Assembly (NCBI GenBank): GCA_028865615.1
Contig: JAGWJT010000001.1
Location: 1,601 to 65,600, forward strand
DNA length: 64,000 bases
Reading direction: 5' to 3'
From: Patescibacteria group bacterium
Lineage (GTDB): Bacteria > Patescibacteriota > Minisyncoccia > Phycocordibacterales > PALSA-1337
Shown one piece after another: positions 1,378-57,106 of the stretch (positions are counted from its first letter, which is position 1; the number at the start of each line of letters is the position of its first letter). The notes below the pieces were generated by a model that did not search any database, was not told where the DNA came from, and saw only the letters and a list, made by a program, of their open reading frames with translations. Made by a program: the position numbers and the translations under genes.

Positions 1378-1884
1378 ATGCAACCAAACAACGGGATCAA
1401 GACTTGGCAGTGGGTCGTCACGGTCATAGTCATCATAGTGCTCATTATCATAGGCATCATGGTCTTCGGCAACAAGGGCGCTCAAGCTCCTACGGAAACC
1501 ACTTCGTCGACCGCTCAGAACACCGGCCAGACCGGTTCCAGCGTCAACAACATAGTCATGGCCGATCAGTATCCGGGCAACGTGGCCTATCTCTCTTCCG
1601 TACAATTGGCCAATCCGGGATGGGTAGTCATACAGAAGGACAACGGCGGCACTCCCGGCGCCATCATCGGAACCGCTTATGCCAATGCCGGCATCGGTCC
1701 GGTCAAAGTCACTCTGACAGAGCCCATGGTCGACGGCGGCACTTATTACGCTTCTCTCTACACCGCAACCAACTCTACGAGCTTCAACGCCAGCGTAGAG
1801 AAAGTCCTGACGGACCAGAATGGCAATCCGATCACTCACGTATTCAAGGCTTCCACTACTGCCAGTGTGAACTTGAAGGGTTAG
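1378..1884 (+). CDS. hypothetical membrane-anchored/secreted protein
   Basis: 168 aa; N-terminal hydrophobic helix (VVTVIVIIVLIIIGIMVF) then a Thr/Ser-rich region; followed by a strong hairpin terminator. Confidence 0.55.
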   Translation: MQPNNGIKTWQWVVTVIVIIVLIIIGIMVFGNKGAQAPTETTSSTAQNTGQTGSSVNNIVMADQYPGNVAYLSSVQLANPGWVVIQKDNGGTPGAIIGTAYANAGIGPVKVTLTEPMVDGGTYYASLYTATNSTSFNASVEKVLTDQNGNPITHVFKASTTASVNLKG

Positions 1885-2023
1885 TCATGGACAAGAAACT
1901 TGTCGGATAACCTTTCCGAGTGACTGCGCAACGTGATACATCGAACGCTAGATAACCACAAAAGCACTTTGCGCAGGAACGAGGGAAGGTTACCGCAAGT
2001 TTCTTGAATGAAGTAGCCATCAA

Positions 2024-2052
2024 AAGCCGGCCTGCAAAGGCCGGCTTTTCGT
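2024..2052 (+). terminator. rho-independent terminator (agccggcc-tgcaaa-ggccggct + T-run)
   Basis: Perfect 8-bp GC stem followed by TTTTCG, between the 1378..1884 gene and gltX. Confidence 0.6.
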
Positions 2053-2066
2053 AGTATAATCTGACA

Positions 2067-3422
2067 ATGCCAACAAATGTCGTCACACGTTTCGCCCCTT
2101 CGCCGACCGGTTATTTCCATGCGGGCTCATATAGGACGGCTCTGTTCTCTTGTATATACGCCCGCCAGAATGGGGGCAAATTCATATTGCGCATAGAAGA
2201 CACGGACAAGGAGCGCTCCAAGAAAGAATACGAGGATAACATCGTAGACAGCCTGCAATGGATAGGCCTCAAATACGATGAATTCTACAGACAATCCGAT
2301 AGGACGGAGCTGTACAGAGAAAGCATCAGGCGTCTCATGGATTCGGGCCATGCATACCTTTCCAAGGAGACACCGACGGATGCAGGAGATAGGCCTGCCG
2401 GCAGGCAAAACAGGGAAGAGGTCATCCGCTTCCGCAACCCGAACAAGAAAGTCGTATTCGACGACATGATCCGTGGCAGGATCGAATTCGACACTACGGA
2501 GCTCGGCGATTTCGTCATAGCCAAAAGCATGGACGAACCCGTGTTCCACCTCGTGGTCGTAGTGGACGACGCGGATATGGGGATAACCCACATCATCCGC
2601 GGCGAGGACCACATCTCGAATACGCCCCGTCAGATCCTTATATTCGAAGCTTTGGGCGTAATGCCGCCGAAATATGCCCATATACCGCTGTTGCTTTCCG
2701 GAGACCGTTCCAAGCTCTCCAAGAGGCATGGTGCGGTGCCTATAACCGAATACCGGAGCAGAGGCTATTTGCCGGAAGCGGTGGTCAATTATTTAGCCTT
2801 GCTCGGCTGGCACCCATCCGATGACAAGGAGATCATGTCTTTCGACGAGATAGTGGGAGCATTCAGTCTGGATCGTGTCCAGAAGTCCGGAGCTATATTC
2901 GACGAGGAGAAGCTCAAATGGTTCAACAAACAGTACTTGAACCGGATGTCAGACGAGCGCTTCACCGAGGCGGCTATGCCATTTGTGCCGGATTGGCTGA
3001 CTACCGGAAGCATGTTGTTCGCCCGTTTGAGTCCCATCATCAAGGAAAAGATAAGCTGCCTGTCGGATATCGCCGGCTTGTTCGCCGGCGGCGGCGAACT
3101 GGCCTTTGTGCACGCGATCGGCCCATACGATCCGTCGATGCTCCTATGGAAGAAAGAGCCCGACAGATCGGCTTCATTGAGACACCTAAATGCGGTCCGA
3201 GACCTGATATCGGGCCTATCCGAAGAAGGATTGACCGCCGACGGTTTGAAGTCCGCCATATGGCCTTATGCCGAAGCCAACGGCCGAGGCAACGTCCTCT
3301 GGCCATTGCGCGTAGCCTTGACCGGCCAAGAAAGATCGCCTGATCCGTTCGTGTGCGCATATATCATAGGCAAGGAAGAATCGCTCAAAAGGATCGATGA
3401 TGCGATCAGTGTATTGGGCTAG
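2067..3422 (+). CDS. gltX: glutamyl-tRNA synthetase
   Basis: 451 aa; class I aaRS with RFAPSPTGYFHAG (HIGH-type) near the N-terminus and KLSKR (KMSKS); GluRS-like throughout. Confidence 0.9.
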   Translation: MPTNVVTRFAPSPTGYFHAGSYRTALFSCIYARQNGGKFILRIEDTDKERSKKEYEDNIVDSLQWIGLKYDEFYRQSDRTELYRESIRRLMDSGHAYLSKETPTDAGDRPAGRQNREEVIRFRNPNKKVVFDDMIRGRIEFDTTELGDFVIAKSMDEPVFHLVVVVDDADMGITHIIRGEDHISNTPRQILIFEALGVMPPKYAHIPLLLSGDRSKLSKRHGAVPITEYRSRGYLPEAVVNYLALLGWHPSDDKEIMSFDEIVGAFSLDRVQKSGAIFDEEKLKWFNKQYLNRMSDERFTEAAMPFVPDWLTTGSMLFARLSPIIKEKISCLSDIAGLFAGGGELAFVHAIGPYDPSMLLWKKEPDRSASLRHLNAVRDLISGLSEEGLTADGLKSAIWPYAEANGRGNVLWPLRVALTGQERSPDPFVCAYIIGKEESLKRIDDAISVLG

Positions 3423-18668: not shown

Positions 18669-19142
18669 ATGACCCTACATCAGACGATTAAAGACCAAGT
18701 CAAAGACGCTCTGCGCGCAAAGGATACGATACGCCTGGACACATTGCGCGGCCTGAATGCCCTATTCCTGAACGATATCGTTATGGGCAAAGCCGAAGCC
18801 GACAAAGACGGCAACATAACCGACGACAAGGCTCTAGCCATCATCAAGCGTTCGGCCAAACAGCGCAAAGACTCTATCGAGCAGTTCGAAAAAGGCGGCA
18901 GGCAAGACTTGGCAGCCAAGGAGAAAGAGGAATTGGCCATCCTGGAATCATTCATGCCGGACATGATGAGCCGCGAGGAGATAGCTATCATAGCCAAAGC
19001 GCGCATAGAAGCCCTGAAGACGGGCGGCACTTTCGACCCGAAAGCGGGCGGCAAGATCACGGGTATGATCATGAAAGAATTGGCCGGCAAAGCCGACGGC
19101 GCAGATGTCAAAGCGGTGGTGGACGAGCTGTTGACAAAATAG
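18669..19142 (+). CDS. GatB/YqeY domain protein
   Basis: 157 aa; all-helical small protein whose pattern (TIKDQVKDALRAKD...RLDTLRGL...) matches the YqeY family. Confidence 0.75.
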   Translation: MTLHQTIKDQVKDALRAKDTIRLDTLRGLNALFLNDIVMGKAEADKDGNITDDKALAIIKRSAKQRKDSIEQFEKGGRQDLAAKEKEELAILESFMPDMMSREEIAIIAKARIEALKTGGTFDPKAGGKITGMIMKELAGKADGADVKAVVDELLTK

Positions 19143-19394
19143 CACTAGTGGTGCTATAATGACAGCCGAACTCAACGAAAGGTTCTTATGACATTACAGC
19201 GTGGATTGGAATTGCTTCGTGCTACTAGGGAAGCTATAACGCGCGGAGAAGATGTCAATGCGTTGATCCCAAAGATCATCCCGGAGACACGTTTCAAAGT
19301 TCCCATATCTGTTGAAGGTCTTGCGCCATCAACAAAAACTGAGAACGGGCGTGAGTCATCCCTCCAACTCAATATATCTTATATGACATATTGG

Positions 19395-20246
19395 TTATGA
19401 AGACGATAGGCCACAGATACCAAAGACTCGACCGGCGTTCCGGAGCAATGCCGCCTCGACGGTTTCGACCGGCAGCTTCTTTATCATTGCGATCTTCTCG
19501 ACCACGGCCGACACATATGACGGCTCGTTGCGCTCCCCGCGATGAGGAACGGGTGCAACGAACGGACAGTCCGTCTCGGCATGCATCATGTCTAGCGGTA
19601 CATATTCGACCAATTCGGCATACTGCTTGGCAAAAGTGATGACGCCAGTGAACGACAGAGTGAAGCCGATGTCCAAGAATCTGCGAGCCTGCTCTACCGT
19701 ACCTGCAAAGAAGTGGGCGTTGCCTTTGACCTCGGCGCGCGACTTCAGGATCTCAAGCGCGTCATCGTATGCCTCGCGGATGTGTAGCATGAGGGGCTTG
19801 TTGAACTCGTTGGCCAGATCTATCTGGGCTTCAAAAGCCGCCTTTTGCCTGGCTTTGGCGGCCGGTTCGGCATTTGACCTGTAGTAGTCCAGGCCGACCT
19901 CCCCTACTCCGACTACTTTGGGATGCTTGATGAGCTCGCGGTATCGGTCAGCGTCAAAATCTTCGCCGCGCGACGTGAATCCGGAGGCATTGGCATTACC
20001 ATTATCCCCCAATTCTTCATTATCATGGAATGAAGCGGATGTGTGGATGGGATGCAAACCTATTATGGCATACACCCCATCGTACTTTTCGGCTATGTCT
20101 ACAGCCTTCCTGGACATGTCATATTGCGTGCCTACGTTAATGAACGCAGTACCAGCGTCAAGTGCCCGCCTGGCCACCACGTCCCTATCCGCGTCAAAAG
20201 CGGTGAAGTTCAGGTGGGCATGAATGTCTATGCGCTTGATTGTCAT
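19395..20246 (-). CDS. tatD: TatD-family metal-dependent DNase/hydrolase (with an internal ~25 aa Asn/Gly-rich insertion)
   Basis: 283 aa; MTIKRIDIHAHLNF (HxH), GLHP, GEVGLDY and the C-terminal motifs of TatD. Confidence 0.85.
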   Translation of the reverse strand: MTIKRIDIHAHLNFTAFDADRDVVARRALDAGTAFINVGTQYDMSRKAVDIAEKYDGVYAIIGLHPIHTSASFHDNEELGDNGNANASGFTSRGEDFDADRYRELIKHPKVVGVGEVGLDYYRSNAEPAAKARQKAAFEAQIDLANEFNKPLMLHIREAYDDALEILKSRAEVKGNAHFFAGTVEQARRFLDIGFTLSFTGVITFAKQYAELVEYVPLDMMHAETDCPFVAPVPHRGERNEPSYVSAVVEKIAMIKKLPVETVEAALLRNAGRVFGICGLSSS

Positions 20247-22240: not shown

Positions 22241-22434
22241 GAATATTGAAAATCATTTTAGCACACATACCGCCAAGCTACTCTTTACAAACACGGTCAA
22301 TTATGGTACCATCTATATCAGATTGATGCTTGTTCGTTGACAAGCTTTGGAGGCCCCGCCTCCGTCGATCTCAACCAAAACCTGCCGATTTTGCTCCCAA
22401 CGGGAGCAACCATCGGCGCAAAAAGGATCAAGCG

Positions 22435-23526
22435 ATGAAAAATCGTATGTTCAGCCTGATCGTGGCTTTCGCGATCGTCCAAGAATCGTCTGTCATCGCC
22501 GCCCTCAAAGCGCCGATGACAGTCGCTCAAGAAGCGGCCATGTTGGCGGCCATCACGCCGACCAACGCCGCGGTAGCCGCTAAAATTGTAACCAAACATG
22601 GATTTACTTTGGCTTCTGCCTCGCTGGATACTACCGGCTCGTCTGGCCAACAAAGCCAGCCGCTAAGTATCATCCCCCCGTCGTCACTGCCGGACTCGTT
22701 GCCGATCGGAAATCTCGATAAGATGCTCGACTACATGGTGAGCAATGCCGCGTATCCTGATTTTAGGTTGAGCTTCTCCACAACTACAAATAGTTACCAA
22801 TACTATGAACGGACCTATGGCGGCGTCCTAAAATTCGACTCATACGCATCTTTCGAACAATGTATGATGACGAACTGTTGGTATGTATACACAAACTTCA
22901 TTGCTTCCAGAACAGATGTTACGTCACCTATCGGATTAACGGTGATCGTTAACTACGACCCGGTTATATTAAACAGTGGCTTAATAATATTAACCAATAA
23001 TGTCGGCTATGTCGGAAGCATTACTTCCAATAGTTTCCTCGGCATTACCAATGCGTTTAACCGGTTGCGTCCACCTGTTATAGTCAGCGGACTGTCTCAG
23101 TTCAAAGTAACGGTTGACGTCAATCCTCCGTATTCCTATACGTGGACGGCGTCCGGACAAAATTCACCGAAAGTCATCGGCGGATATCCGATAGAATGGA
23201 CGACAAATGGAGTGGTGATATTGAACCAATGGTATGGCATGGGTCAATACAGAGCACGGTTCACCATAACGGCCAACGGTCAGACCAGGACATATACCCA
23301 ATCAGGCTCTCCGTTGCAGGGCGCAGAGTTGTCCATGACGAGCCGTTCAAACCTCTTGGTATCAATGACAAGCGGTTCAGACACTTACATTGAAGCATCA
23401 ACCAATCTAACTGACTGGACTACCGTGACGAATTTCCCATGGCAGTTCACCGGCATGACGAATTGCACTTCCATAATCATTGATCCTGACCTGCCAGAAC
23501 AATTCTTCAGGGCCAGGTCGGAATAA
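22435..23526 (+). CDS. hypothetical secreted protein sharing a C-terminal ~60 aa module with the 4129..6933 protein
   Basis: Start chosen at the ATG at 22435 (MKNRMFSLIVAFAIV); C-terminus YIEASTNLTDWTTV...TNC...FFRARSE parallels YTIQASTNLASTDWQNIA...TNCPFRFYRAVSQ. Confidence 0.5.
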   Translation: MKNRMFSLIVAFAIVQESSVIAALKAPMTVAQEAAMLAAITPTNAAVAAKIVTKHGFTLASASLDTTGSSGQQSQPLSIIPPSSLPDSLPIGNLDKMLDYMVSNAAYPDFRLSFSTTTNSYQYYERTYGGVLKFDSYASFEQCMMTNCWYVYTNFIASRTDVTSPIGLTVIVNYDPVILNSGLIILTNNVGYVGSITSNSFLGITNAFNRLRPPVIVSGLSQFKVTVDVNPPYSYTWTASGQNSPKVIGGYPIEWTTNGVVILNQWYGMGQYRARFTITANGQTRTYTQSGSPLQGAELSMTSRSNLLVSMTSGSDTYIEASTNLTDWTTVTNFPWQFTGMTNCTSIIIDPDLPEQFFRARSE

Positions 23527-23576
23527 ACTCGGAACGAACAAAGTCCCCGGAGCTTAGAGCTGCCGGGGCATTTTTA

Positions 23577-24926
23577 TCACTTTTCTGATTCGGATGAGGA
23601 ATTCAGATTCAGGATAACCGGGTTACCATCATTGCTATACGTATCATTTCCACCACCTGGAACTCCGGTATACTGACAGTATATTGAGAATGTATAAGTG
23701 CCAGCTTTTGCTCCAGTTGTATCAAAAGGAGCAGAACCGCTGGGACCAGCACCCCATCCACTTGACCAACCAGAATTAGTCTGCGCATAACAGGTATAAT
23801 CACTCAAACCTGACAACGAGTTAGCCCACGCCAACTCGAATTTCTGACCAACAGACAAATTTAGAGATGTCCTTGTAGCGTTGCCGGGAACTCCTATGTT
23901 TAGTGATACTGGATAAGTATTGTTAACTTGTGTTCCGCTTACAATTACGGTGCCGCATTGGTTGGCGGTACTCCCCATGATATATTTGCCCGTCGAATCA
24001 TATACAGCGACTCCGGGCGAATACGAATTGTCGGTCTTGTTAGTATTTGATGGATAATTGAATGTATAATTCACCGTATTATCTCCTTGAGACAGAGCCG
24101 TGTATGAAGAATAATTACCCGTTCCATCCAAGAATCTATACTTATACCCCGATGAAGCAGGGACATTCGTCACCGTAGCAGTGACCTTGACTCCACCTCC
24201 ATTTGATGACAACGACAGAGGGCTAGCTGAACAAGAACTTATAGACACCGTGCTCCCGCAATTGCCGCCAGGACAGTTGTTGATGATTATGCCTTGGCCG
24301 TTGCTGCCTGGGATGTCGAACTGGAGCCAGCCGACGACAGGGCCGCCCCAGGCATAGCCGCTGAAAGCACCGGTTGAAGGATTCATGTAAACTCCGCCGC
24401 CCGGTGCCGACGAAGGACTCGGGCTGGGACTGGAGCTAGAGCTCGGACTGCCGGAAGAAGAAGGTGATGGGCTTGAGCTCGGACCGGAACTTGATTGGGT
24501 CGCTATGGAAGGGTGATTTGCTCCCGAAAGCTCTATCCATCCGTCCCAGCCGTCAGTGCGTCCTTTACCGGACAAAGCCATAGCCCAGCCGGTGACGGCA
24601 CCTGTAGACAAATTGACGCGAGGACCGCATATGCCGTTGGCGGGGACTACCGGACAACCGGCAACATCGCTATCATTGAAATAGATCCAACCTATATTTG
24701 AAGACCACAAGTATCCGGATATGACGCCGCTACTGTTCACGGTCAATGAATACGGCCCGCCGCCGCCCGCGCCGGATTGGGTGGAGCTGGCGCTGACCCA
24801 GCCTATGGTCGACGACCAGGCCCAGCCGCTAGATTGCCCGCCGGTGATCTGGGCGCTCACTCCTATGATGCCCACGGCCAGAACGGCCAGCGCTAATATG
24901 CTCAAGGTATAGATGTGTTTTTTCAT
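23577..24926 (-). CDS. secreted protein with a Ser/Pro-rich linker and repeated GW-containing beta-strand motifs
   Basis: 449 aa; signal peptide; SSSGPSSSPSPSSSGSPSSSSSPSPSPSS linker; repeats TIGWVSA, NIGWIYF, VTGWAMA, VVGWLQF. Confidence 0.6.
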   Translation of the reverse strand: MKKHIYTLSILALAVLAVGIIGVSAQITGGQSSGWAWSSTIGWVSASSTQSGAGGGGPYSLTVNSSGVISGYLWSSNIGWIYFNDSDVAGCPVVPANGICGPRVNLSTGAVTGWAMALSGKGRTDGWDGWIELSGANHPSIATQSSSGPSSSPSPSSSGSPSSSSSPSPSPSSAPGGGVYMNPSTGAFSGYAWGGPVVGWLQFDIPGSNGQGIIINNCPGGNCGSTVSISSCSASPLSLSSNGGGVKVTATVTNVPASSGYKYRFLDGTGNYSSYTALSQGDNTVNYTFNYPSNTNKTDNSYSPGVAVYDSTGKYIMGSTANQCGTVIVSGTQVNNTYPVSLNIGVPGNATRTSLNLSVGQKFELAWANSLSGLSDYTCYAQTNSGWSSGWGAGPSGSAPFDTTGAKAGTYTFSIYCQYTGVPGGGNDTYSNDGNPVILNLNSSSESEK

Positions 24927-24967
24927 GCCATAATTTTACCATTAATGCGCGGAACGCACTTGGTGAC

Positions 24968-24976
24968 TGTGGATAA
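24968..24976. promoter_or_regulatory. perfect DnaA-box 9-mer (TGTGGATAA = reverse complement of TTATCCACA)
   Basis: Exact match to the consensus; single copy, so probably a regulatory site or chance rather than an origin. Confidence 0.25.
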
Positions 24977-25154
24977 CGGCGTCTATCATCCGCGGACCGG
25001 CAATATGACAGTGAAAACCTAGCCTTTCCCGCGGCCGGCGAACTCAGCTTTGACTTTGATGGTTTTGGGGAACATCCATAGCAGATATGTCAGCACATTT
25101 CATCGGTTACGCCTCGCGGCTTCACACCGACACGTCCTGCCGAACCCCGCAAGA

Positions 25155-25182
25155 TTGACAAGCAGAGCCAAAAGCATATAAT
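25155..25182 (+). promoter_or_regulatory. near-consensus sigma70-type promoter TTGACA-N16-TATAAT
   Basis: ttgaca (25155-25160) and tataat (25177-25182) read directly from the sequence. Confidence 0.5.
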
Positions 25183-25188
25183 TGCCAG

Positions 25189-25345
25189 CAATTAGATCAT
25201 TTCCGATGTAGTAAACAGCCCCCAAGTCTACGGCCTTGATCAACCAGCGGTTGCAAAGGCGTTGAGGGGTACGGGGTCCCTCCGGAACAATCTTGCTCCG
25301 CAATGCGGAGATTCTGCAAAAAGCCTTTAAGAGAGGCTTTTTGTT
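25189..25345 (+). ncRNA. candidate small RNA (~155 nt) from a consensus promoter to an intrinsic terminator; no ORF
   Basis: The transcript would run from ~25189 to the terminator at 25317-25345; it contains the hairpin ctccgc-aat-gcggag; there is no downstream + strand gene. Confidence 0.35.
25317..25345. terminator. intrinsic terminator (aaagcct-ttaagag-aggcttt + TTGTTTTT)
   Basis: Stem-loop with T-run; can also serve the minus-strand ORF ending at 25327. Confidence 0.6.
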
Positions 25346-25686
25346 TTTCTGTTCATGACGCTCAGAAAATATGGCTGTTTATCTTTGATTTGTCCGATTA
25401 TCACGACCACTTTCTTATCACCTATCGTTTTTTCGACAGACCATTCTCTGTACGAACCAGAAAGACGACAACCTATAATAGACGTTTTATCTGTCAAAAT
25501 GCTGGGTACGTGGGGTATAAGGCGTAGTCTTCTCATAATATCTTCGGCTGTATGGCCTCCATTGAAGATATGATTCCAACCCCTATGATCAAATATCACA
25601 GGCTTGTCGTCCAATGCTGCGCAACAAATGTGGCCGAACGAAAAATAGATCTGCCGTATCTTTTTGGCGAATGCGTTGTCGAACAT
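25327..25686 (-). pseudogene. possible C-terminal fragment of a metallophosphoesterase (FGHICC ... GGHTAED); low-confidence ORF
   Basis: 119 aa; weak resemblance to the C-terminal GH-x-H region of calcineurin-like phosphoesterases; the N-terminal motifs are absent. Confidence 0.25.
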
Positions 25687-25720
25687 CCACCCACCGTATC
25701 ACAGCGGTGTTCAAGAAACG

Positions 25721-25760
25721 TTCAAAAAAGTCTCAAATCGGAATCAAAAAAGAATCAAAT
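25721..25760. promoter_or_regulatory. A-rich tandem motif copy 3 (ttcaaaaaagtctcaaatcggaatcaaaaaagaatcaaat)
   Basis: Near-identical to copy 2; lies 35-75 bp upstream of the 25327..25686 minus-strand ORF start. Confidence 0.45.
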
Positions 25761-26008
25761 CCGAGTGAAGAAAATGAACCCTAGGCAACAGGCTTGTTAT
25801 ATAAGCCGACCACGGCGTCATGGAAAGATAACGTGATCACATCCGGATCGGACTAGGCCGGCACCGATATGAGCTCGCCCATGTTGACCGGTGAACACGC
25901 CGAGCAGTCCGTATATGAAAGATATGACGTTTATCTCCGGCCTGTAGAAAAGATTGAAATACGCCCATGCCAATGGCCAAGTGACGGTTTGCGATATGCG
26001 TAGAGGAT

Positions 26009-28195
26009 TCATGTGATTATCGGCCAGCTCTCCACCATGAGCGGCTTCTTGCCTTTTCCGGCGGCCAGTGCCACCGGCATATCCGACCATATCTCTTCCG
26101 TTATGTAAGGCATGAATGGATGCAAGGCGCGGAGAAGCTTGTCCAAGGTCTCAACCAAGAGACGTTTGCGCGAAGCTATGCCTTCCGCAGATTCATTTTG
26201 AAAGACATGCTTGCTGTTTTCCAATATCTGATCGGCAAACTGATGCCAAGCGTACTGATACAGTTTCTCCGCAACAATGTAGAATTTATATTCGTCCATC
26301 TCTGCCGTAATCTCCTTAAACAGTTTATCTCTAACATCTATCAGAGCGACGTCGTTTGCGGAATATGAGACGCTCATATCAACATCATTTACATTCTCGA
26401 ATATGAACCTGGCTATGTTCCACAGCTTGTTGGCAAATTTTTTGTAGGCTGAGACCTTGCCTTCTGACAATGCCAGCGACGTACCGGGCGTATTGCCTAT
26501 GACCATTCCCATACGAAATGCGTCCGTTCCAAATTTGGCCGTCAGTGTCAACGGATCTATAACATTGCCTTTACTCTTGCTCATCTTTTGGCCTTTAGCA
26601 TCCAGAACCAGACCATGCAGATAGACAGTCTTGAAAGGCATCTTGCCAGTAACATACAATCCCAACATAATCATGCGCGATACCCAGAAAAATATTATTT
26701 CTCCTGCAGTCTCCATGACATCGGTAGGATAATATGTTTTAAAATCCTCACTTCCCGGAAATCCCAGAGAAGCGAAAGGCCACTGTGACGATGAGAACCA
26801 TGTATCGAACGTATCGTTATCTTTGATTAGATCTCCGCCACACTTTGCACACGTTCTTAACTTGTCATCGAGATCGACAAAACCTTCTCCGCATTTCTGA
26901 CATATCTTTGCCGGTATGGGTATGCCCCATACAATCTGCCTAGATATATTCCAGTCGATTATATTCTCAAGCCAATGGGTAGTTATCTTCTTGTAATGTT
27001 CAGGTATATACTCTATCTCCCCGGATTTGATCTTTTCCAAAGCTTTATCAGCCAACGGTTTCATATGGACAAACCATTGGCTCTTTATCTGCGGTTCTAT
27101 TATCGTGCCGCATTTGTAACATGTACGCACCACATGCTTATAATTCATATCTGTTTTTTCCACCAAACCTTTAGCTTTGAGTTTCTCTATGATGAGCGGT
27201 CTAGCTTTCTTGATATTCATTCCGACAAATTCTCCGGCTATCGGTAATAGCTTACCTCGCTCGTCTATTATCTGTTCCTTGTCCAGATGATGGCGCTCGG
27301 CTATTTCGAAATCCACCGGATCGTGCCAAGGCGTTATCGTCATGACGCCAGTACCAAATTCCATGTCTATCGCCTTATCCTTAATGATGGTAGCGGTTAT
27401 CGGACCGTTGATCCATTCCAGGCTTATCTTTTGGCCATCTTCGTACTCGGCATATCTCTTATCGTCTGGATGCATGACTACGTACTTGTCACCAAACTTA
27501 GTCTCTGGTCTGGATGTAGCTATAGTGAATGGGCCATATTTCAAATAATAGAATTCCTCCGTACGTTCTTCATCTTTTATTTCAAGGTCAGAGAAAGAGG
27601 TCTGATGCTTGGGACACCAAGATACGATGCGTTTGCCTCTATAGAGCAGACCGTCTTCAGACAATCTTTTGAATGTGTCATATACCGTTCTTACGATATC
27701 ATTGTCCAAAGTGAATTTTTCTCGAGACCAATCGCATGAAGCGCCGATCTTCTTGATCTGTTCCTTTATGTTCGCCGAATTAGTCAAAGTAAAATCAAGT
27801 ATTTCCTGATATAGCTTCTTTGGCTCTATCTCGAATCTAGTCCTTCCTTCTTTCTCAAGCTTTTTCTCATAAACTACTTGCGTCTCGAAACCGGCATGGT
27901 CTAGACCAGGTAACCACAAGGTACGATATCCTCGCATCCTTTTATAACGAGTCATTATGTCTTCAATGGTCATAACCAAGCCGTGACCGGCATGCAACGA
28001 CCCATTAGCATTAGTAGGCGGCATTATTATAGTAAAAGGTTTGGCCATATCGGTGACAAGGCCATCTTCCAAACATTTATCCGGGTTGAAATAACCGCTG
28101 TCCTGCCACAGCTTGTAAATGCGTCCCTCTACGGCCGCCGGGTCATATGGTTTCAAGAATTTGTCCGGAGCCTTGCTGGGCGGCTTTTCATTCAT
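26009..28195 (-). CDS. valS: valyl-tRNA synthetase (short form without the C-terminal coiled-coil)
   Basis: Class I aaRS with PPTNANGSLHAGH (HIGH) and KMSKSKGN; start assigned to MNEKPPSKAP (28195) to avoid overlap with the divergent tsaD. Confidence 0.9.
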   Translation of the reverse strand: MNEKPPSKAPDKFLKPYDPAAVEGRIYKLWQDSGYFNPDKCLEDGLVTDMAKPFTIIMPPTNANGSLHAGHGLVMTIEDIMTRYKRMRGYRTLWLPGLDHAGFETQVVYEKKLEKEGRTRFEIEPKKLYQEILDFTLTNSANIKEQIKKIGASCDWSREKFTLDNDIVRTVYDTFKRLSEDGLLYRGKRIVSWCPKHQTSFSDLEIKDEERTEEFYYLKYGPFTIATSRPETKFGDKYVVMHPDDKRYAEYEDGQKISLEWINGPITATIIKDKAIDMEFGTGVMTITPWHDPVDFEIAERHHLDKEQIIDERGKLLPIAGEFVGMNIKKARPLIIEKLKAKGLVEKTDMNYKHVVRTCYKCGTIIEPQIKSQWFVHMKPLADKALEKIKSGEIEYIPEHYKKITTHWLENIIDWNISRQIVWGIPIPAKICQKCGEGFVDLDDKLRTCAKCGGDLIKDNDTFDTWFSSSQWPFASLGFPGSEDFKTYYPTDVMETAGEIIFFWVSRMIMLGLYVTGKMPFKTVYLHGLVLDAKGQKMSKSKGNVIDPLTLTAKFGTDAFRMGMVIGNTPGTSLALSEGKVSAYKKFANKLWNIARFIFENVNDVDMSVSYSANDVALIDVRDKLFKEITAEMDEYKFYIVAEKLYQYAWHQFADQILENSKHVFQNESAEGIASRKRLLVETLDKLLRALHPFMPYITEEIWSDMPVALAAGKGKKPLMVESWPIIT

Positions 28196-28241
28196 GCCAG
28201 AAATACTAGCAAAAATCCCGCCAAAACGGTATCTTTGAGCC

Positions 28242-29786
28242 ATGAATATCCTGGGCATAGAGACATCGTGCGACGAGACGGCTTTGGCGCTCATCGAGAC
28301 GCGCAAGGACGGAAAATCGGGCATGGGGTTGCGCGTACTGGCTTCGCTGGTGCATTCGCAGGCGGAATTGCATAGCGCCTACGGCGGCGTCTACCCTACT
28401 CTGGCAAAGCGCGAGCATGGCAAAAATATAGTGCCGTTGCTTGGCAAGTTGTTGGAGGAACATGGGAACATTGTCCTGAAGAAACTTTCGGAGCCGTCGC
28501 GGGAGCCAAGTCCGCCTGGTACTGGCGACGGCGAGAACGTAACCCGTCCCGAGCCGGCCCATGTTCCGTGGCAGGCCGGCGAGGGACCGGGTGGTTCTGA
28601 AGGGCAATGTTCCCATGTTCCGACAACATTCAAGGATATCTTAGAGCGATTCAAGGACGAAATCGGTCCGCAAAATCCGGAACTGTTCGCATCGTTCTCG
28701 CACGCCGATTTCCTGCAAGGACCGGCACCGGCCATAGACGCCATAGCAGTGACGGAAGGTCCAGGCTTGGAACCGGCCTTGTGGGTCGGCATCAATTTTG
28801 CCAGGATGCTGGCGGCTTTGTGGCAAGTGCCGATCATCCCCGTCGATCACATGGAGGGACATATAGTCGGCTCGCTTCTGCCTTCGGACGCCGTAGCTCC
28901 GGCCGACGGCAACGGCGGTTGGCAGAGATTGCACGATGCGCCCATGCCGGCCATAGCTCTCCTCATAAGCGGCGGCCATACACAGTTGGTGAAAGTGTGC
29001 CGTCATGGGGCAGGCACAGCAGTCTCCTCACGTCCTGCGGAGCTCACTCGCGGAATCGCCGTCGCCTCGTCGCCTCTGCACCTTCGTGCAGAATTGGCTT
29101 CCTCGGCTCCTGGCGATTCTCGCTCGCTCGAGCAGGACCCTCGGACGTTCGGAAACTCTGTGCCTGCCCCATTTTCCTACACCATCCTCGGCGAGACCAA
29201 GGACGATGCCGTGGGAGAAGCTTTCGACAAGACCGCCAGACTTCTCGGCTTGCCGTATCCCGGCGGTCCTCACCTGTCGGAGCTAGCTCGCAAGGCTCGG
29301 GAAGAGAAGATTCCTGCACTAGTCAAACTGCCTAGACCGATGATCAACTCCGGCGATCTGGATCTTTCATTCTCCGGCTTGAAGACCGCGGTGCTCTACG
29401 TCGTGCGTGACGCCGACAAGAACCCTGACGGCTCACTGCCTGACGCGTTCAGGAAAAGCCTGGCCCAAGAATTCGAGACGGCCGTAGCCGACGTATTGGA
29501 CTTCAAATTGCGCGCGGCGATAGACAAGATCGGCGCCAAGTCCATCATATTGGGCGGCGGCGTATCGGCCAACTCTGTCCTGCGTGCCCGATTTGAGGCC
29601 GCCGCTGTAGAATACGGCATACCTGTATTCATGCCGTCAAGGCATATATCCGGAGACAATGCCCTCATGATAGCCGTGGCCGCGGCCATTCATGCCCATG
29701 AATATACCGGAACGCCCCCCACCGCAAGACGGTGGAGGGCGGACGGGACCAAGCGTCTAGGTGACGCTAGGGCTCATGATCAATGA
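28242..29786 (+). CDS. tsaD: tRNA N6-adenosine threonylcarbamoyltransferase TsaD (Kae1/YgjD family) carrying two large in-frame low-complexity insertions
   Basis: MNILGIETSCDET, PVDHMEGH, GGHTQL, GEAFDKTARLLGL and the C-terminal GGVSAN are all conserved; 514 aa vs ~340 typical; insertions at ~28480-28740 and 29005-29172. Confidence 0.85.
   Translation: MNILGIETSCDETALALIETRKDGKSGMGLRVLASLVHSQAELHSAYGGVYPTLAKREHGKNIVPLLGKLLEEHGNIVLKKLSEPSREPSPPGTGDGENVTRPEPAHVPWQAGEGPGGSEGQCSHVPTTFKDILERFKDEIGPQNPELFASFSHADFLQGPAPAIDAIAVTEGPGLEPALWVGINFARMLAALWQVPIIPVDHMEGHIVGSLLPSDAVAPADGNGGWQRLHDAPMPAIALLISGGHTQLVKVCRHGAGTAVSSRPAELTRGIAVASSPLHLRAELASSAPGDSRSLEQDPRTFGNSVPAPFSYTILGETKDDAVGEAFDKTARLLGLPYPGGPHLSELARKAREEKIPALVKLPRPMINSGDLDLSFSGLKTAVLYVVRDADKNPDGSLPDAFRKSLAQEFETAVADVLDFKLRAAIDKIGAKSIILGGGVSANSVLRARFEAAAVEYGIPVFMPSRHISGDNALMIAVAAAIHAHEYTGTPPTARRWRADGTKRLGDARAHDQ
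29005..29172. repeat. 168-bp in-frame insertion in tsaD bounded by 15-bp perfect inverted repeats (atggggcaggcacag / ctgtgcctgccccat); MITE-like
   Basis: Read directly; corresponds exactly to the 56 aa (CRHGAG...VPAP) absent from canonical TsaD between GGHTQL and the GEAFDK region. Confidence 0.5.
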
Positions 29787-41035: not shown

Positions 41036-41614
41036 TCATGGCCTTGAAGCTATCATAAGCCTGTACCAATATCTATCGCCGAAGAAGCTTGACAACAGGC
41101 GCTGTTCTTCTATACTTCTAGTGTACGGAGACCGACAATCGATCTTCGTAAACACTCTGGCTTCGGCCTCGGGGACCCCTGATTCTGGGGTCCTTGTACT
41201 TTTTATGAGCATATCGATTATATTGGCAGTGAGCGTTGTATATTCAGTTATAGACAGTGTAGAGACCTTGTTTATGAGTCTCTTTGTATCGAATGTTCTG
41301 GCTTGCAATATCAACATGTCGTTAGTGATGTCGTTCAATGAAAATTTGATCCTATAATCGCCGGTCTTGATTTTTGTGGTCAAGGGCACTCCCCAGAAGA
41401 CCTTATCAGTGAACTTTTTCAATACGATAACGGGTCTGCCGAAATCATCCGCGTATGAATCTTGTTCTGAACCGATGTTTACGCCTACGGCGCACCACCA
41501 TATCTCGCGCTCATGAAAATTAACCGCCTGACTTTTGCCGTCAAGCGCTTTCTTGTAAGCGTTCCACCTGTCGAAATCCTTCGTCGCCACCGCGACATTG
41601 TAGCAGAAAATCAA
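41036..41614 (-). CDS. MazF/PemK-family (CcdB/MazF fold) endoribonuclease toxin-like protein with N- and C-terminal extensions; non-ATG start; no adjacent antitoxin evident
   Basis: HEREIWWCAVGVNIGSEQD...GRPVIVLKK, VFWGVPLTTKIK and LILQARTFDTKRLINKVSTLSITEY parallel the PemK blocks (GEIW..GHEQ..RPVLIV; PVTS; DQ.RTIDK.RL). No Met before residue ~100, so the start is TTG or GTG. Confidence 0.5.
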   Translation of the reverse strand: MIFCYNVAVATKDFDRWNAYKKALDGKSQAVNFHEREIWWCAVGVNIGSEQDSYADDFGRPVIVLKKFTDKVFWGVPLTTKIKTGDYRIKFSLNDITNDMLILQARTFDTKRLINKVSTLSITEYTTLTANIIDMLIKSTRTPESGVPEAEARVFTKIDCRSPYTRSIEEQRLLSSFFGDRYWYRLMIASRP

Positions 41615-56345: not shown

Positions 56346-56527
56346 GAAGAGAGTATATCATGCACACTTTAATCTACATAAAACAAGGAGAGTTTGGACT
56401 TCGCTTACATTAGCCAGACATCAATATAATTTTGTGTCAACTTGCAAAATCACCACAGCTTGATATCATTCACGCACAACTAGGACCCCGCGACAAATCC
56501 GCCGTATGGGGAAAGATCAGAAATGAT

Positions 56528-57106
56528 CTAACGGGCATCCTGACCATCCGCCGCAAGGCGGATGGTTGCTTTGCAACGACCAGAAATATGTCGATAGAGT
56601 TCACTCGCGGTTCCTGTTGATTTGTTGTGATAGGATCTGACCAACCAAGCCAATGCATCAGCAAGCCTGATCATTGGACAAGATCTGTCGTCAACGGTCT
56701 TTATAGATTTTACCGACAACCCTCTGCACCGCAAAGATCGCTTTATCTGGCTTTCATACCATTTAGGTTTTTTACCATCGATATATACTTTCTCTACATC
56801 AATCTCCGTTATAAGTGTGGCCATAGAATCATACAGCTCCTTTACCGGATCTATGGGATTATCAACTATCCTGTATTTGAACGAGAATTTCAGTTTAGAG
56901 ACCTTGATGATAAATTGTCTGCGAATAGACCAACCTCTGCGCGATCCGAAATCTGCCCAATGAAAATCGCTAATACCGAGACGTCTTTCAATGTCTTGAA
57001 TGCCGCGACTAACTGCCGTCTCATCTCTAACTCCTACATAGACCGCCACAAAACTCGATCTATCAGATCTTTTGTGTATACCTGATTCATCAATGAATAT
57101 ATGCAT
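56528..57106 (-). CDS. DUF3800-family protein
   Basis: 192 aa; N-terminal MHIFIDESG is characteristic of DUF3800. Confidence 0.55.
   Translation of the reverse strand: MHIFIDESGIHKRSDRSSFVAVYVGVRDETAVSRGIQDIERRLGISDFHWADFGSRRGWSIRRQFIIKVSKLKFSFKYRIVDNPIDPVKELYDSMATLITEIDVEKVYIDGKKPKWYESQIKRSLRCRGLSVKSIKTVDDRSCPMIRLADALAWLVRSYHNKSTGTASELYRHISGRCKATIRLAADGQDAR

Follow-up and report, generated by a model that had tools for sequence, protein, structure and literature searches.

A 64-kb window of CPR/Patescibacteria DNA (the whole stretch of 64,000 nucleotides that was analyzed) contains a 400-bp non-coding gap (24927 to 25326; the first-pass annotation had correctly put it at ~400 bp) in which a strong promoter is followed by a terminator. 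This arrangement raises the question of what the gap encodes and what the product does. The first-pass annotation had proposed a stand-alone small RNA (sRNA), 6S-like or novel, with a promoter, a hairpin, a terminator, and a DnaA box nearby. The promoter, hairpin, and terminator are present as described (Table 1).

The sigma-70-type promoter matches the consensus at 12 of 12 positions. Three 12/12 sites were found in the window, compared with 0.07 expected from shuffled sequences. Both of the remaining sites (19131, plus strand; 60441, minus strand) lie 5' of starts that combine a ribosome-binding site with an ORF, and consensus promoters therefore appear to be used in this genome. Promoters of the form TTGACx-N16/17-TAxxxT were located 5' of the RNA in all 10 further family loci that were read. 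The terminator consists of a 13-bp stem (25316 to 25344) followed by TTTTC and is predicted to be bidirectional because the minus strand carries a T-run as well. The absence of an ORF, as originally stated, held for the plus strand, where no plausible frame was found in the sRNA unit. It did not hold for the minus strand, where the convergent gene ORF119 had been missed. The ORF119 stop codon (25327 to 25329) sits in the terminator loop and its last codons lie inside the terminator hairpin, an overlap that recurs in the other family loci read. A 21-codon frame with a TTG start (25263 to 25328) was considered as a small peptide and rejected, since a 1-nt indel breaks the frame in the homologous locus L166; the compensatory substitutions in the stems also contradict a peptide reading. 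The exact DnaA 9-mer (24968 to 24976) exists, but its significance does not exceed chance: sites with at most one mismatch number 13 in the window versus 12.6 expected, without clustering and with none near the exact box. The cumulative GC skew was flat and monotonic with no turning point, and an origin (oriC) reading was rejected on both grounds.

Table 1. Positions of the predicted elements of the sRNA-ORF119 locus in the window.
Feature	Position	Strand	Basis or remark
sRNA promoter, TTGACA-N16-TATAAT	25155..25182	+	12/12 match; equivalents in 10 other family loci
Predicted transcription start of sRNA	~25188-25190	+	Approximate
Predicted ~160-nt sRNA (leader, four-way-junction core, P5 hairpin, terminator)	25189..25349	+	L166/L177 alignment; predicted ends
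Structured core "module A", predicted four-way junction with tRNA-like connectivity	25196..25292	+	CM R1, covariation
P1	25198-25205 with 25283-25290	+	Core helix
P2	25208-25211 with 25228-25231	+	Core helix
P3	25233-25236 with 25257-25260	+	Core helix; variable hairpin as cap
P4	25264-25268 with 25278-25282	+	Core helix
Loop-loop pseudoknot, P2 loop/P4 loop	CCCC 25219-25222 with GGGG 25273-25276	+	Compensatory changes
P5 hairpin CUCCGC-AAU-GCGGAG, between core and terminator	25296..25310	+	Conserved in L166 and L177
Predicted bidirectional intrinsic terminator common to sRNA (+) and ORF119 (-)	25316..25349	both	13-bp stem
ORF119, 119-aa stand-alone protein, predicted colicin-like BECR fold (LPD3/PBECR-like)	25327..25686	-	134 homologues, AlphaFold2, Foldseek
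ORF119 upstream region, presumed promoter and 5' UTR	25687..25800 (approximate boundaries)	-	Candidate regulatory region

Analysis of two loci in genomic contexts unrelated to that of the window (L166 and L177) revealed RNAs that align with the window sRNA over its full length, from the -10 box to the terminator, with 73 to 75% nucleotide identity. The adjoining ORFs reached only 53 to 54% nucleotide and 32 to 34% protein identity, so that the RNA is the better conserved of the two. In all probability, the unit encodes a genuine non-coding sRNA that is structured, strongly promoted, and terminated.

The core of this RNA follows the helix-linker pattern 8bp-2nt-4bp-1nt-4bp-3nt-5bp-0nt. On alignment A5, 93% of cells were paired in the consensus structure. 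Compensatory changes were found at 8 pairs, located in P1, P3, P4, and the pseudoknot, compared with 0 to 1 in slid controls, with the fold evidence coming from only six sequences in about three groups. The consensus fold of the window core has an energy of -24.2 kcal/mol versus an MFE of -27.1. Folding of the unit, proposed as a check in the first-pass annotation, gave z = -3.5 relative to shuffles. G-U pairs assign the structure to the plus strand, and the window copy scored 95 bits with CM R1. The stem of the P5 hairpin, already recognized from the sequence as CTCCGC-AAT-GCGGAG, shows compensatory changes in L166 and L177 (CTCTGC/GCAGAG and CTTTAC/GTAAAG) and is missing in the L163, L181, and L178 versions. 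As judged by comparison of these sequences, the unit is a conserved RNA with a defined fold supported by covariation.

Conservation of the RNA became visible only by tracking the partner protein, not valS synteny. No nucleotide similarity to positions 24927 to 26008 was found in 160 valS loci from genomes and metagenomes; the conservation in relatives that had been suggested as a check was found beside ORF119 homologues instead. In L001, the closest relative, about 100 bp separate valS from the p449 homologue and the sRNA is absent from this gap; the window cassette is therefore an insertion. A convergent promoter-RNA-terminator unit was found directly downstream of the ORF119-family gene in 11 of 11 distinct loci examined, and the family loci are inserted amid unrelated housekeeping genes (in the adk/secY gap, beside truB, pth, or rpoC, and in the gap between L5 and its neighbor). 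In ~1.6 Mb of related CPR DNA, CM R1 matched only beside ORF119 homologues and the ORF119 HMM detected no protein away from the RNA loci. A weak CM match in L132, without a partner gene and beside a tRNA, was taken as spurious. The partner RNA is not always the same: some relatives carry a structurally different module B or a tandem B-A, so that one protein family is accompanied by several RNAs. A conserved second ORF, as a possible protein antitoxin, was not found in the family loci. A search for repeats or TIRs flanking the cassette gave only short, chance-like matches, tblastn against phages was empty, and the RNA patterns had no match in viral contigs. A real, conserved sRNA coupled to ORF119 is highly probable. 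The originally proposed candidate stands as a structured, promoted, and terminated RNA, but not as a free-standing one: the predicted sRNA and the convergent ORF119 together make up a two-gene cassette.

An exhaustive HMMER search with ORF119 revealed 134 homologues at E<1e-3, which form a family of stand-alone proteins of ~120 amino acids; on the basis of these homologues, the predicted ORF119 is a real gene. Its codon score is the best among the six frames. Residues Y14, F32, G36, and H39 are invariant in an alignment of 54 sequences, and the second His of most family members (KHFFSVM) is replaced by Tyr in the window protein (PYFLSVM). Pfam LPD3 was matched by 14 of these 54 members at E<=0.01 (best, 1.9e-6) and PBECR3 by one member (E=0.0099), and the window protein gave 15.7 bits with PBECR4 (E=0.02), below the cut-off of 27. 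The AlphaFold2 model (mean pLDDT, 93.5) contains, in order, a pre-alpha helix at 34 to 41 with the invariant H39, a helix at 47 to 64, and four strands across 70 to 114. This order agrees with the definition of the colicin-like BECR topology, i.e., a pre-alpha element with the catalytic His, an alpha helix, and a four-stranded sheet (bioRxiv 10.64898/2026.08.28.747851). Foldseek related the model to a phage LPD3 domain (TM 0.65) and found nothing significant in the PDB; a PDB sequence search with ORF119 was also empty. No significant match to the PBECR3 partner, the Javan99 neighbor, or DUF3800 was obtained with hhalign. ORF119 was absent from a word-indexed search of a 5.8-billion-protein index, and an exact-sequence lookup of the neighboring p449 returned no record. 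As modeled, the ORF119 protein has an RNase-toxin-like fold. Its upstream region contains a 22-nt tandem repeat (25722 to 25765), and a G/T-rich stretch (GGTGGGTGG) abuts the ATG, as similar stretches do in L161, L169, and L181; inspection of 25687 to 25800 for an ORF119 promoter identified none.

Rfam searches that covered the full window with gathering thresholds, and the region with a limit of E<=10, assigned the unit to no family (6S, SRP, tmRNA, tRNA, riboswitch, or other). A sub-threshold relationship with skipping-rope RNA (RF02924; gathering threshold, 36.7 bits) emerged from a homologue. RF02924 did not match the window copy at E<=10, and confining the search to 113 nt gave no match either. 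The L163 homologue aligned with the full-length model (positions 1 to 80) at 23.1 bits, below the threshold; canonical skipping-rope controls scored 37 to 70 bits. Conversely, the top matches of CM R1 were canonical RNAs at the exact RF02924 coordinates in three of four loci, at weak scores of 13 to 17 bits (E=0.0025 to 0.026).

Comparison with the RF02924 consensus layout revealed in both RNAs a four-way junction whose 8-bp closing helix encloses three hairpins and is followed by a 2-nt linker. They also have in common the direct stacking of P4 on P1, a very similar P4 sequence (UGCGGGAA...GCCCCGCC), a loop-loop contact that joins P2 and P4, a Rho-independent terminator 3' of the RNA (here, 25316 to 25349), and, apparently, an association with one small protein gene nearby. 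The partner proteins on both sides have a predicted BECR/PBECR-type nuclease fold; we infer that this fold is common to the ORF119 family and the PBECR2/3 partners, whose sequence match is not significant. In contrast to canonical skipping-rope RNA, P2 differs (GAUGUAGUAA...CUACG versus GAGGUCGGAAA...CCGAC), the window-type P3 is long and variable, and the polarity of the pseudoknot is swapped: here, the P2 loop holds the C-run and the P4 loop the G-run, whereas three canonical copies inspected by eye have GG(C/U) in P2 and (G/A)CC in P4. The window-type RNA and its protein gene converge, whereas canonical RNAs lie downstream on the same strand, and the partner belongs to an LPD3-like family without a significant sequence match to the PBECR3 partner. 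The hosts are CPR/Patescibacteria rather than Firmicutes and similar phyla, and some relatives of the window RNA are replaced or prefixed by module B.

In seven of seven Firmicutes plasmids, canonical skipping-rope RNAs (58 to 70 bits) were located 60 to 140 nt downstream of stand-alone PBECR2/3 genes. Linkage to the ORF119 family is strict for the window-type RNA, and a link to stand-alone PBECR2/3 proteins holds for canonical skipping-rope RNAs. Skipping-rope RNAs have been described as having terminators, showing no self-cleavage, and being tied to a single nearby protein domain (Weinberg 2017, PMC5737381). The core is probably a divergent CPR relative of this class. The first-pass annotation had allowed that an Rfam assignment would merely rename its candidate; this applies in part, since the RNA is a sub-threshold skipping-rope relative that fails the RF02924 model. 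The predicted RNA is probably a variant of a known, functionally orphan RNA class and is not a 6S, SRP, or tRNA.

The best explanation overall, in which we place slightly less than even confidence, is an RNA antidote cassette in which the skipping-rope-variant RNA neutralizes the convergent RNase-like ORF119 protein. The sRNA would be transcribed from the consensus promoter and end at the terminator common with ORF119, and the pseudoknot between the P2 and P4 loops would lock the tRNA-shaped four-way junction. The abundant structured RNA would then bind the RNase-like protein and block its activity, much like a type III RNA antitoxin and possibly as a tRNA decoy, and the convergent 3' overlap may contribute some antisense or transcriptional interference. 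Here, we infer sRNA transcription, RNA-protein binding, toxicity, and neutralization, and the antitoxin mechanism as such, proposed by analogy, is a shade more tentative than the overall reading. More doubtful is the specific proposal that the tRNA-shaped, pseudoknot-locked RNA is a dedicated antidote of a stand-alone BECR-fold RNase, which would act by single-copy junction mimicry, unlike ToxI repeats.

Several observations count against an antitoxin. The RNA is single-copy and convergent, unlike type III repeats, and the window protein has Tyr in place of the second His. The same protein family occurs with module B or tandem B-A, which is awkward for a lock-and-key inhibitor, and conservation is much stronger in the RNA than in the protein, as might be expected if the RNA instead acted on a conserved cellular target.

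It is rather unlikely that the RNA and ORF119 form a functional partnership of another kind, with the RNA as a substrate, a cofactor or scaffold, or an RNP sensor in mobile-element defense or propagation. A tRNA-like RNA might be cleaved or modified by the nuclease upon a signal, or the RNA might direct the protein to a conserved cellular machine. The same linkage and fold evidence supports such a partnership as supports the antidote cassette, and the much stronger conservation of the RNA fits a contact with a host component that is itself conserved. The service of one protein family by different RNA modules has a parallel in the 11 DUF3800 motifs, and LPD3/PBECR domains are found in phage polyvalent proteins that are active early in invasion. 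However, the cassette has no further conserved components, a solo BECR toxin without protein immunity needs a neutralizer, for which the RNA is the only conserved candidate, and the strong constitutive promoter suits a stoichiometric inhibitor.

An antisense or transcription-interference regulator of type I-like character, in which convergent transcription and the ~20- to 30-nt 3' overlap lower the level or stability of ORF119 mRNA, is improbable. The convergent, terminator-sharing layout is conserved in 11 of 11 CPR loci, and there is a precedent in the Bacillus type I systems with 3'-overlapping RNA antitoxins, RatA/TxpA and SR4/BsrG. The overlap is, however, limited to the terminator, and the conserved covarying part (25196 to 25292) lies outside ORF119. 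Complementarity of the sRNA to the ORF119 5' region showed no excess over shuffles (z ~ -1.4), and ORF119 is not a small hydrophobic peptide. Canonical skipping-rope RNAs share the strand of their PBECR genes and lie downstream of them, and antisense pairing therefore cannot be a class-wide mechanism.

There is very little probability that the RNA acts in trans independently of ORF119, as a 6S-like or base-pairing regulatory sRNA, and lies beside this gene by chance. Its strong promoter, its own terminator, the lack of a plus-strand ORF, and the lack of a claim by any Rfam family would suit such an sRNA, but the RNA occurs only beside ORF119 homologues (11 of 11 loci with unrelated neighbors; ~1.6 Mb), is missing from the syntenic valS-p449 gap in close relatives, and has a fold that is not 6S-like. 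A chance promoter-like sequence upstream of a valS/ORF119 unit terminator, with no functional RNA, has a negligible probability even though ORF119 transcription would need a terminator anyway, as comparative evidence effectively refutes it: 12/12 promoters occur 40 times as often as in shuffles and the two outside this locus serve genes, the conservation of promoter and RNA extends across loci and includes compensatory changes, and the G-U pairs fit the plus strand only.

These results suggest that the skipping-rope class reaches CPR/Patescibacteria in a form missed by the Rfam model. Here and in the canonical Firmicutes systems, the predicted partners are stand-alone proteins with a BECR-type nuclease fold and no protein immunity gene, the RNA would have tRNA junction geometry, and modules A, B, and tandem B-A appear as interchangeable partners of one protein family. 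An orphan RNA class is thereby provided with a testable hypothesis, namely, that such RNAs counter a tRNase-like toxin as antitoxins or decoys. If true, this would represent a new kind of RNA antitoxin with a wide distribution, from Firmicutes plasmids, where skipping-rope accompanies PBECR2/3, to CPR, where the variant accompanies the LPD3-like ORF119, and the first function for the skipping-rope class. The same might apply, by analogy, to the drum and DUF3800 RNAs as well as to a MazF-like ORF with a convergent sRNA in the window. For annotation, ORF119-type genes and their RNAs are at present unnamed or uncalled in CPR genomes.

Among known RNAs, 6S RNA is comparable in its length of ~150 to 180 nt, strong promoter, and non-coding nature. 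The 6S-like assignment was nevertheless not borne out: there was no Rfam 6S match, and the predicted four-way junction replaces the long rod with a central bubble. Unlike 6S, the RNA is not a housekeeping RNA and is missing from close relatives. The resemblance to tRNA is closer. The junction connectivity is 8-2-4-1-4-3-5-0 here and 7-2-4-1-5-(4-5)-5-0 in tRNA, the stems of the second and fourth arms measure 4 bp and 5 bp, respectively, and a tertiary contact would join the loops of these arms. Several toxins with the BECR fold, among them colicins D and E5 and CdiA-CTs, are tRNases. Unlike tRNA, the window RNA has no CCA end and no T-loop/D-loop consensus, its "anticodon arm" is the least conserved, and its loops are larger. 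A tRNA identity was rejected because neither ARAGORN nor the Rfam tRNA model detected the RNA, which is tRNA-like in junction topology only.

The RNA motifs associated with DUF3800 and the drum RNA resemble the window RNA in being structured, in having 3' terminators, and in being genomically bound to one protein family, for which multiple unrelated RNA structures exist; they are found in either orientation to the protein gene. They differ in their protein family, with no detectable relation between ORF119 and DUF3800, and in their RNA folds. The window also carries a DUF3800 gene with a DUF3800-II RNA in the same convergent, 3'-overlapping layout, as well as a solo PemK/MazF-like ORF (41036 to 41614) with a convergent promoter, a short RNA (41117 to 41205), and a terminator. 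Skipping-rope, drum, and DUF3800 RNAs are complex structured RNAs whose function has been unassigned since 2017 (Weinberg 2017, PMC5737381), and the literature searched contained no functional study of them.

With respect to toxin-antitoxin systems, type I membership was rejected, as ORF119 is a 119-aa soluble alpha/beta protein, in contrast to the small hydrophobic peptide toxins of that type. The known antitoxins of type III consist of tandem repeats that are located upstream of the toxin and processed by it. Unlike the type III systems, the predicted toxin fold is BECR and not of the ToxN type, and the RNA is single-copy (~100 to 160 nt), with no tandem array of short repeats found. It is also convergent or downstream, whereas type III RNA lies upstream with a terminator between RNA and toxin. 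Like ToxIN, CptIN, and TenpIN, the cassette combines a small protein of putative endoribonuclease type with a structured, pseudoknotted RNA and no protein antitoxin, in a small, mobile-looking module whose RNA, as in type III systems, is predicted to be highly expressed.

Analysis of the sRNA unit located the three signals that the first-pass annotation had described, namely, a consensus promoter, a terminator, and the hairpin preceding it. The predicted transcript was more stable than shuffled sequences (z = -3.5). Promoters matching at 12 of 12 positions occur three times in the 64-kb window, compared to 0.07 times in shuffled sequences, and the other two are positioned upstream of ribosome-binding sites and ORFs; therefore, consensus promoters look functional in this genome. 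One 12/12 promoter (TTGACA-N18-TATAAT) leads into a ~70-codon ORF that shows weak codon bias and is missing from the list of ORFs of at least 110 aa. The exact DnaA 9-mer noted beside the unit exists but is isolated: 13 sites with no more than one mismatch were observed in the window versus 12.6 expected, and the GC skew across the window gave no origin signal. We treat this site as chance. The proposal of a free-standing sRNA in a noncoding gap held as far as a conserved structured RNA is concerned, but the terminator is bidirectional and carries the stop codon and last codons of an overlooked minus-strand gene, ORF119. The codon score of ORF119 was the highest among the six frames, and the gene is real. 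Two tandem, directly repeated 22-nt units (82% identical) lie 40 to 80 nt upstream of its start codon and could be an operator or a piece of the ORF119 promoter region.

Features of the cassette, its surroundings, and compared loci (window positions unless a contig is named)
Feature	Position	Strand	Description
sRNA promoter	25155-25182	+	TTGACA-N16-TATAAT, 12/12 match
Module A	25196-25292	+	RNA core
P1	25198-25205 with 25283-25290	+	8 bp, then 2-nt linker
P2		+	4 bp, large CCCC-bearing loop, then 1-nt linker
P3		+	4 bp closing variable hairpin, then 3-nt linker
P4		+	5 bp, 9-nt GGGG-bearing loop, directly abuts P1
Pseudoknot	25219-25222 with 25273-25276	+	P2 and P4 loops, able to pair
P5	25296-25310	+	CTCCGC-AAT-GCGGAG
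Terminator	25316-25344	both	13-bp stem, with T-run after it; bidirectional
ORF119	25327-25686	-	119 aa
Direct repeat	25722-25765		22 nt, tandem
DnaA 9-mer	24968-24976		exact site
valS	26009-28324	-	ValRS
Adjacent genes	22330-24926	+ and -	398 aa (+), 449 aa (-)
~70-codon ORF unit	19131-19400	+	start 19188, AAAGG ribosome-binding site
PemK/MazF-like ORF	41036-41614	-	192 aa
Antisense unit	41089-41212	+	in 3' part of PemK/MazF-like ORF
Its promoter	41089-41116	+	TTGACA-N16-TATACT
DUF3800 gene	56528-57106	-	
DUF3800-II RNA	56476-56545	+	overlaps 3' end of DUF3800 gene
Module B	L163, 3467-3530		
Module B	L181, 1971-2032		
SpF41 sRNA	Javan99 (L182), 1854-1956		116 bits
Skipping-rope RNA	Javan99 (L182), 1999-2076		canonical

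ORF119 had no match among 5.8 billion proteins in a word-indexed search or, at normal thresholds, in Pfam, NCBIfam, PADLOC, and PHROG. Exhaustive HMMER searching of 1.84 billion representatives revealed 134 homologues (E < 1e-3), nearly all stand-alone proteins of ~120 aa. Alignment of 54 family members revealed invariant residues Y14, F32, G36, and H39 and nearly invariant residues C22, R45, R53, F107, and S109; the window protein carries Tyr at the position of a second His of most relatives. Pfam LPD3 was matched by 14 of these 54 members (best E value, 1.9e-6) and PBECR3 by one, and window ORF119 matched PBECR4 under the cut-off (E = 0.02). The AlphaFold2 model of ORF119 (28 aligned sequences; mean pLDDT, 93.5) consists of a helix, two short strands, the G36/H39 helix, a long helix, and a four-stranded sheet. 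This order corresponds to that of colicin-like BECR proteins, whose topology is given as "pre-alpha + alpha + beta1-4," with additional N-terminal strands described for PBECRs (bioRxiv 10.64898/2026.08.28.747851). Among viral models, Foldseek matched an LPD3 domain from a polyvalent protein of a podovirus (TM, 0.65), and neither Foldseek nor sequence searching gave anything significant in the PDB. We conclude that ORF119 adopts the RNase-toxin-type BECR fold, with putative activity.

Tracing the homologues to their own contigs yielded 10 distinct loci besides the window. The genes are solo among unrelated housekeeping genes (in the adk/secY interval or beside truB, pth, rpoC, dnaE, rmuC, or L5). 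All 10 loci show the window layout: directly downstream of the ORF, on the opposite strand, a convergent unit runs from a TTGACx-N16/17-TAxxxT promoter through a structured RNA to a terminator that overlaps the ORF 3' end. Module A stands alone in the window, L166, and L177 (partial copy in L178), and a different RNA, module B, stands alone in L161, L169, L171, L174, and L179; in L163 and L181, module B is fused 5' of module A. The window, L166, and L177 RNAs share 73 to 75% identity from the -10 box through the terminator, and their ORFs share 53 to 54% nucleotide and 32 to 34% protein identity. A search of ~1.6 Mb of CPR DNA with the module A covariance model (R1) detected module A only beside ORF119 homologues, apart from one weak match that has no protein gene and is thus probably spurious. 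These results show that the RNase-fold protein gene and the structured RNA gene are a strictly coupled pair with a mobile-looking distribution; the RNA has a strong promoter, and no conserved protein immunity gene belongs to the cassette.

Conservation, suggested earlier as a check, was thus found alongside ORF119 homologues but not by synteny: the 1.08-kb spacer between valS and p449, the neighboring 449-aa gene, has no nucleotide similarity among 160 related valS loci, and in the closest relative (L001) valS and the p449 homologue are ~100 bp apart. Judged by this comparison of loci, the cassette is an insertion. The GC content is 44% in valS and 41% in ORF119, versus ~52% for most of the window, and ValRS is at most 79 to 80% identical to uncultured MAG proteins. 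The genome belongs to the CPR/Patescibacteria and has a Paceibacterota-like appearance. The adjacent 398-aa and 449-aa genes lack Pfam matches; in several relatives, homologues of both (25 to 50% identity) are syntenic with valS. The N terminus of the 449-aa protein resembles a signal peptide, and its linkers are rich in Ser and Pro.

Module A forms a four-way junction. When six copies were aligned with the model, 93% of cells were paired, compared to 37 to 52% in slid controls, and 8 of 25 pairs, including one pseudoknot pair (C-G to U-A), changed on both sides, compared to 0 to 1 in the controls. The G-U pairs are compatible with the sRNA strand only. The energetic cost of the consensus fold is small, at -24.2 kcal/mol versus -27.1 for the MFE, the pseudoknot being uncounted. 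P5 covaries as well. Module B has two helices (96% paired; 6 of 10 pairs covarying) and no Rfam match; it spans ~60 to 80 nt, its closing helix covaries, and the segment CGGCAUUGWAGCUGGUGG is invariant. The connectivity of module A (8-2-4-1-4-3-5-0) and the contact between second- and fourth-arm loops match those of tRNA; no tRNA was detected in the sRNA by ARAGORN or the tRNA model.

The Rfam comparison gave no RF02924 (skipping-rope) score for the window copy, even in a 113-nt search, but a permissive scan of homologous loci matched L163 module A to it over the full length, below threshold (23.1 bits; threshold, 36.7). The skipping-rope consensus has the junction layout of module A and a nearly identical P4 (UGCGGGAA..GCCCCGCC). 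Four canonical members found via this consensus, in a Streptococcus satellite phage, an Enterocloster phage, and two Firmicutes plasmids, score 37 to 68 bits; with R1, three of these RNAs were the top matches at the same coordinates, with weak scores (13 to 17 bits; E = 0.0025 to 0.026). In the satellite phage, Javan99, an SpF41 sRNA with a tRNA-like GGUUCGAAUCC arm lies immediately upstream of the skipping-rope RNA, and the next genes encode a Gp49/RelE-superfamily toxin and a transcription regulator. According to Weinberg et al. 2017 (PMC5737381), skipping-rope is a complex motif that has a terminator on its 3' side and does not self-cleave; no later functional work was found in the literature searched. 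The finding holds and goes beyond a generic sRNA: the RNA is probably a new form, undetected with Rfam, of a known class whose function is orphan, rather than something categorically new.

Similar pairs occur in the window. The DUF3800 gene has a convergent DUF3800-II RNA (54.4 bits, above the Rfam threshold) in a layout identical to that of the ORF119 cassette; this RNA has its own promoter (TTGCAA-N16-TATCAT) and a downstream hairpin. The PemK/MazF-like ORF (Pfam E = 1.8e-7) has no evident antitoxin gene beside it. Its antisense unit comprises a promoter, a ~90-nt predicted RNA (fold z = -3.3), and a strong terminator hairpin, and the two may be another RNase toxin/sRNA pair. With three nuclease- or defense-type genes facing convergent sRNAs in 64 kb, the arrangement appears to recur in this genome.

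By analogy with type III toxin-antitoxin systems, we propose that the sRNA would bind and neutralize the ORF119 protein. Neutralization would perhaps proceed through tRNA mimicry, because several BECR toxins are tRNases. Against an antitoxin stand the single-copy RNA in place of repeats, the service of one protein family by alternative RNA modules, the lower conservation of the protein than of the RNA, and the modest fold scores; an RNA-protein RNP with another role is a possible, if rather unlikely, alternative. Control mainly by antisense or transcription interference through the 3' overlap is improbable: canonical skipping-rope RNAs lie on the same strand as the partner gene, and the sRNA has no excess complementarity to the ORF119 5' region. 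An independent sRNA is very improbable, and the absence of any RNA is scarcely credible.

Canonical skipping-rope RNAs have protein partners of their own. On a Macrococcoides plasmid, a 132-aa protein that exceeds the Pfam PBECR3 cut-off (46 bits; cut-off, 30) is encoded immediately upstream of such an RNA, and its homologues occur on 17 plasmids. Six diverse plasmids (36 to 47% identity; Brevibacillus, Priestia, two Bacillus thuringiensis types, Sporosarcina, and Clostridium) each carried a canonical skipping-rope RNA (58 to 70 bits) 70 to 140 nt downstream on the same strand. Altogether, the RNA lay 60 to 140 nt downstream of a stand-alone PBECR2/3 gene in 7/7 Firmicutes plasmids (L184 and L186 to L191), whose gene tables have no annotated feature at these positions. 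ORF119 and the plasmid PBECR3 partner share no significant sequence similarity. With skipping-rope and PBECR paired in plasmids and module A and ORF119 in CPR, skipping-rope-type RNAs have stand-alone BECR-type protein partners in Firmicutes and CPR alike. An orphan RNA class is now linked to BECR-fold proteins, with a concrete, testable mechanism proposed.
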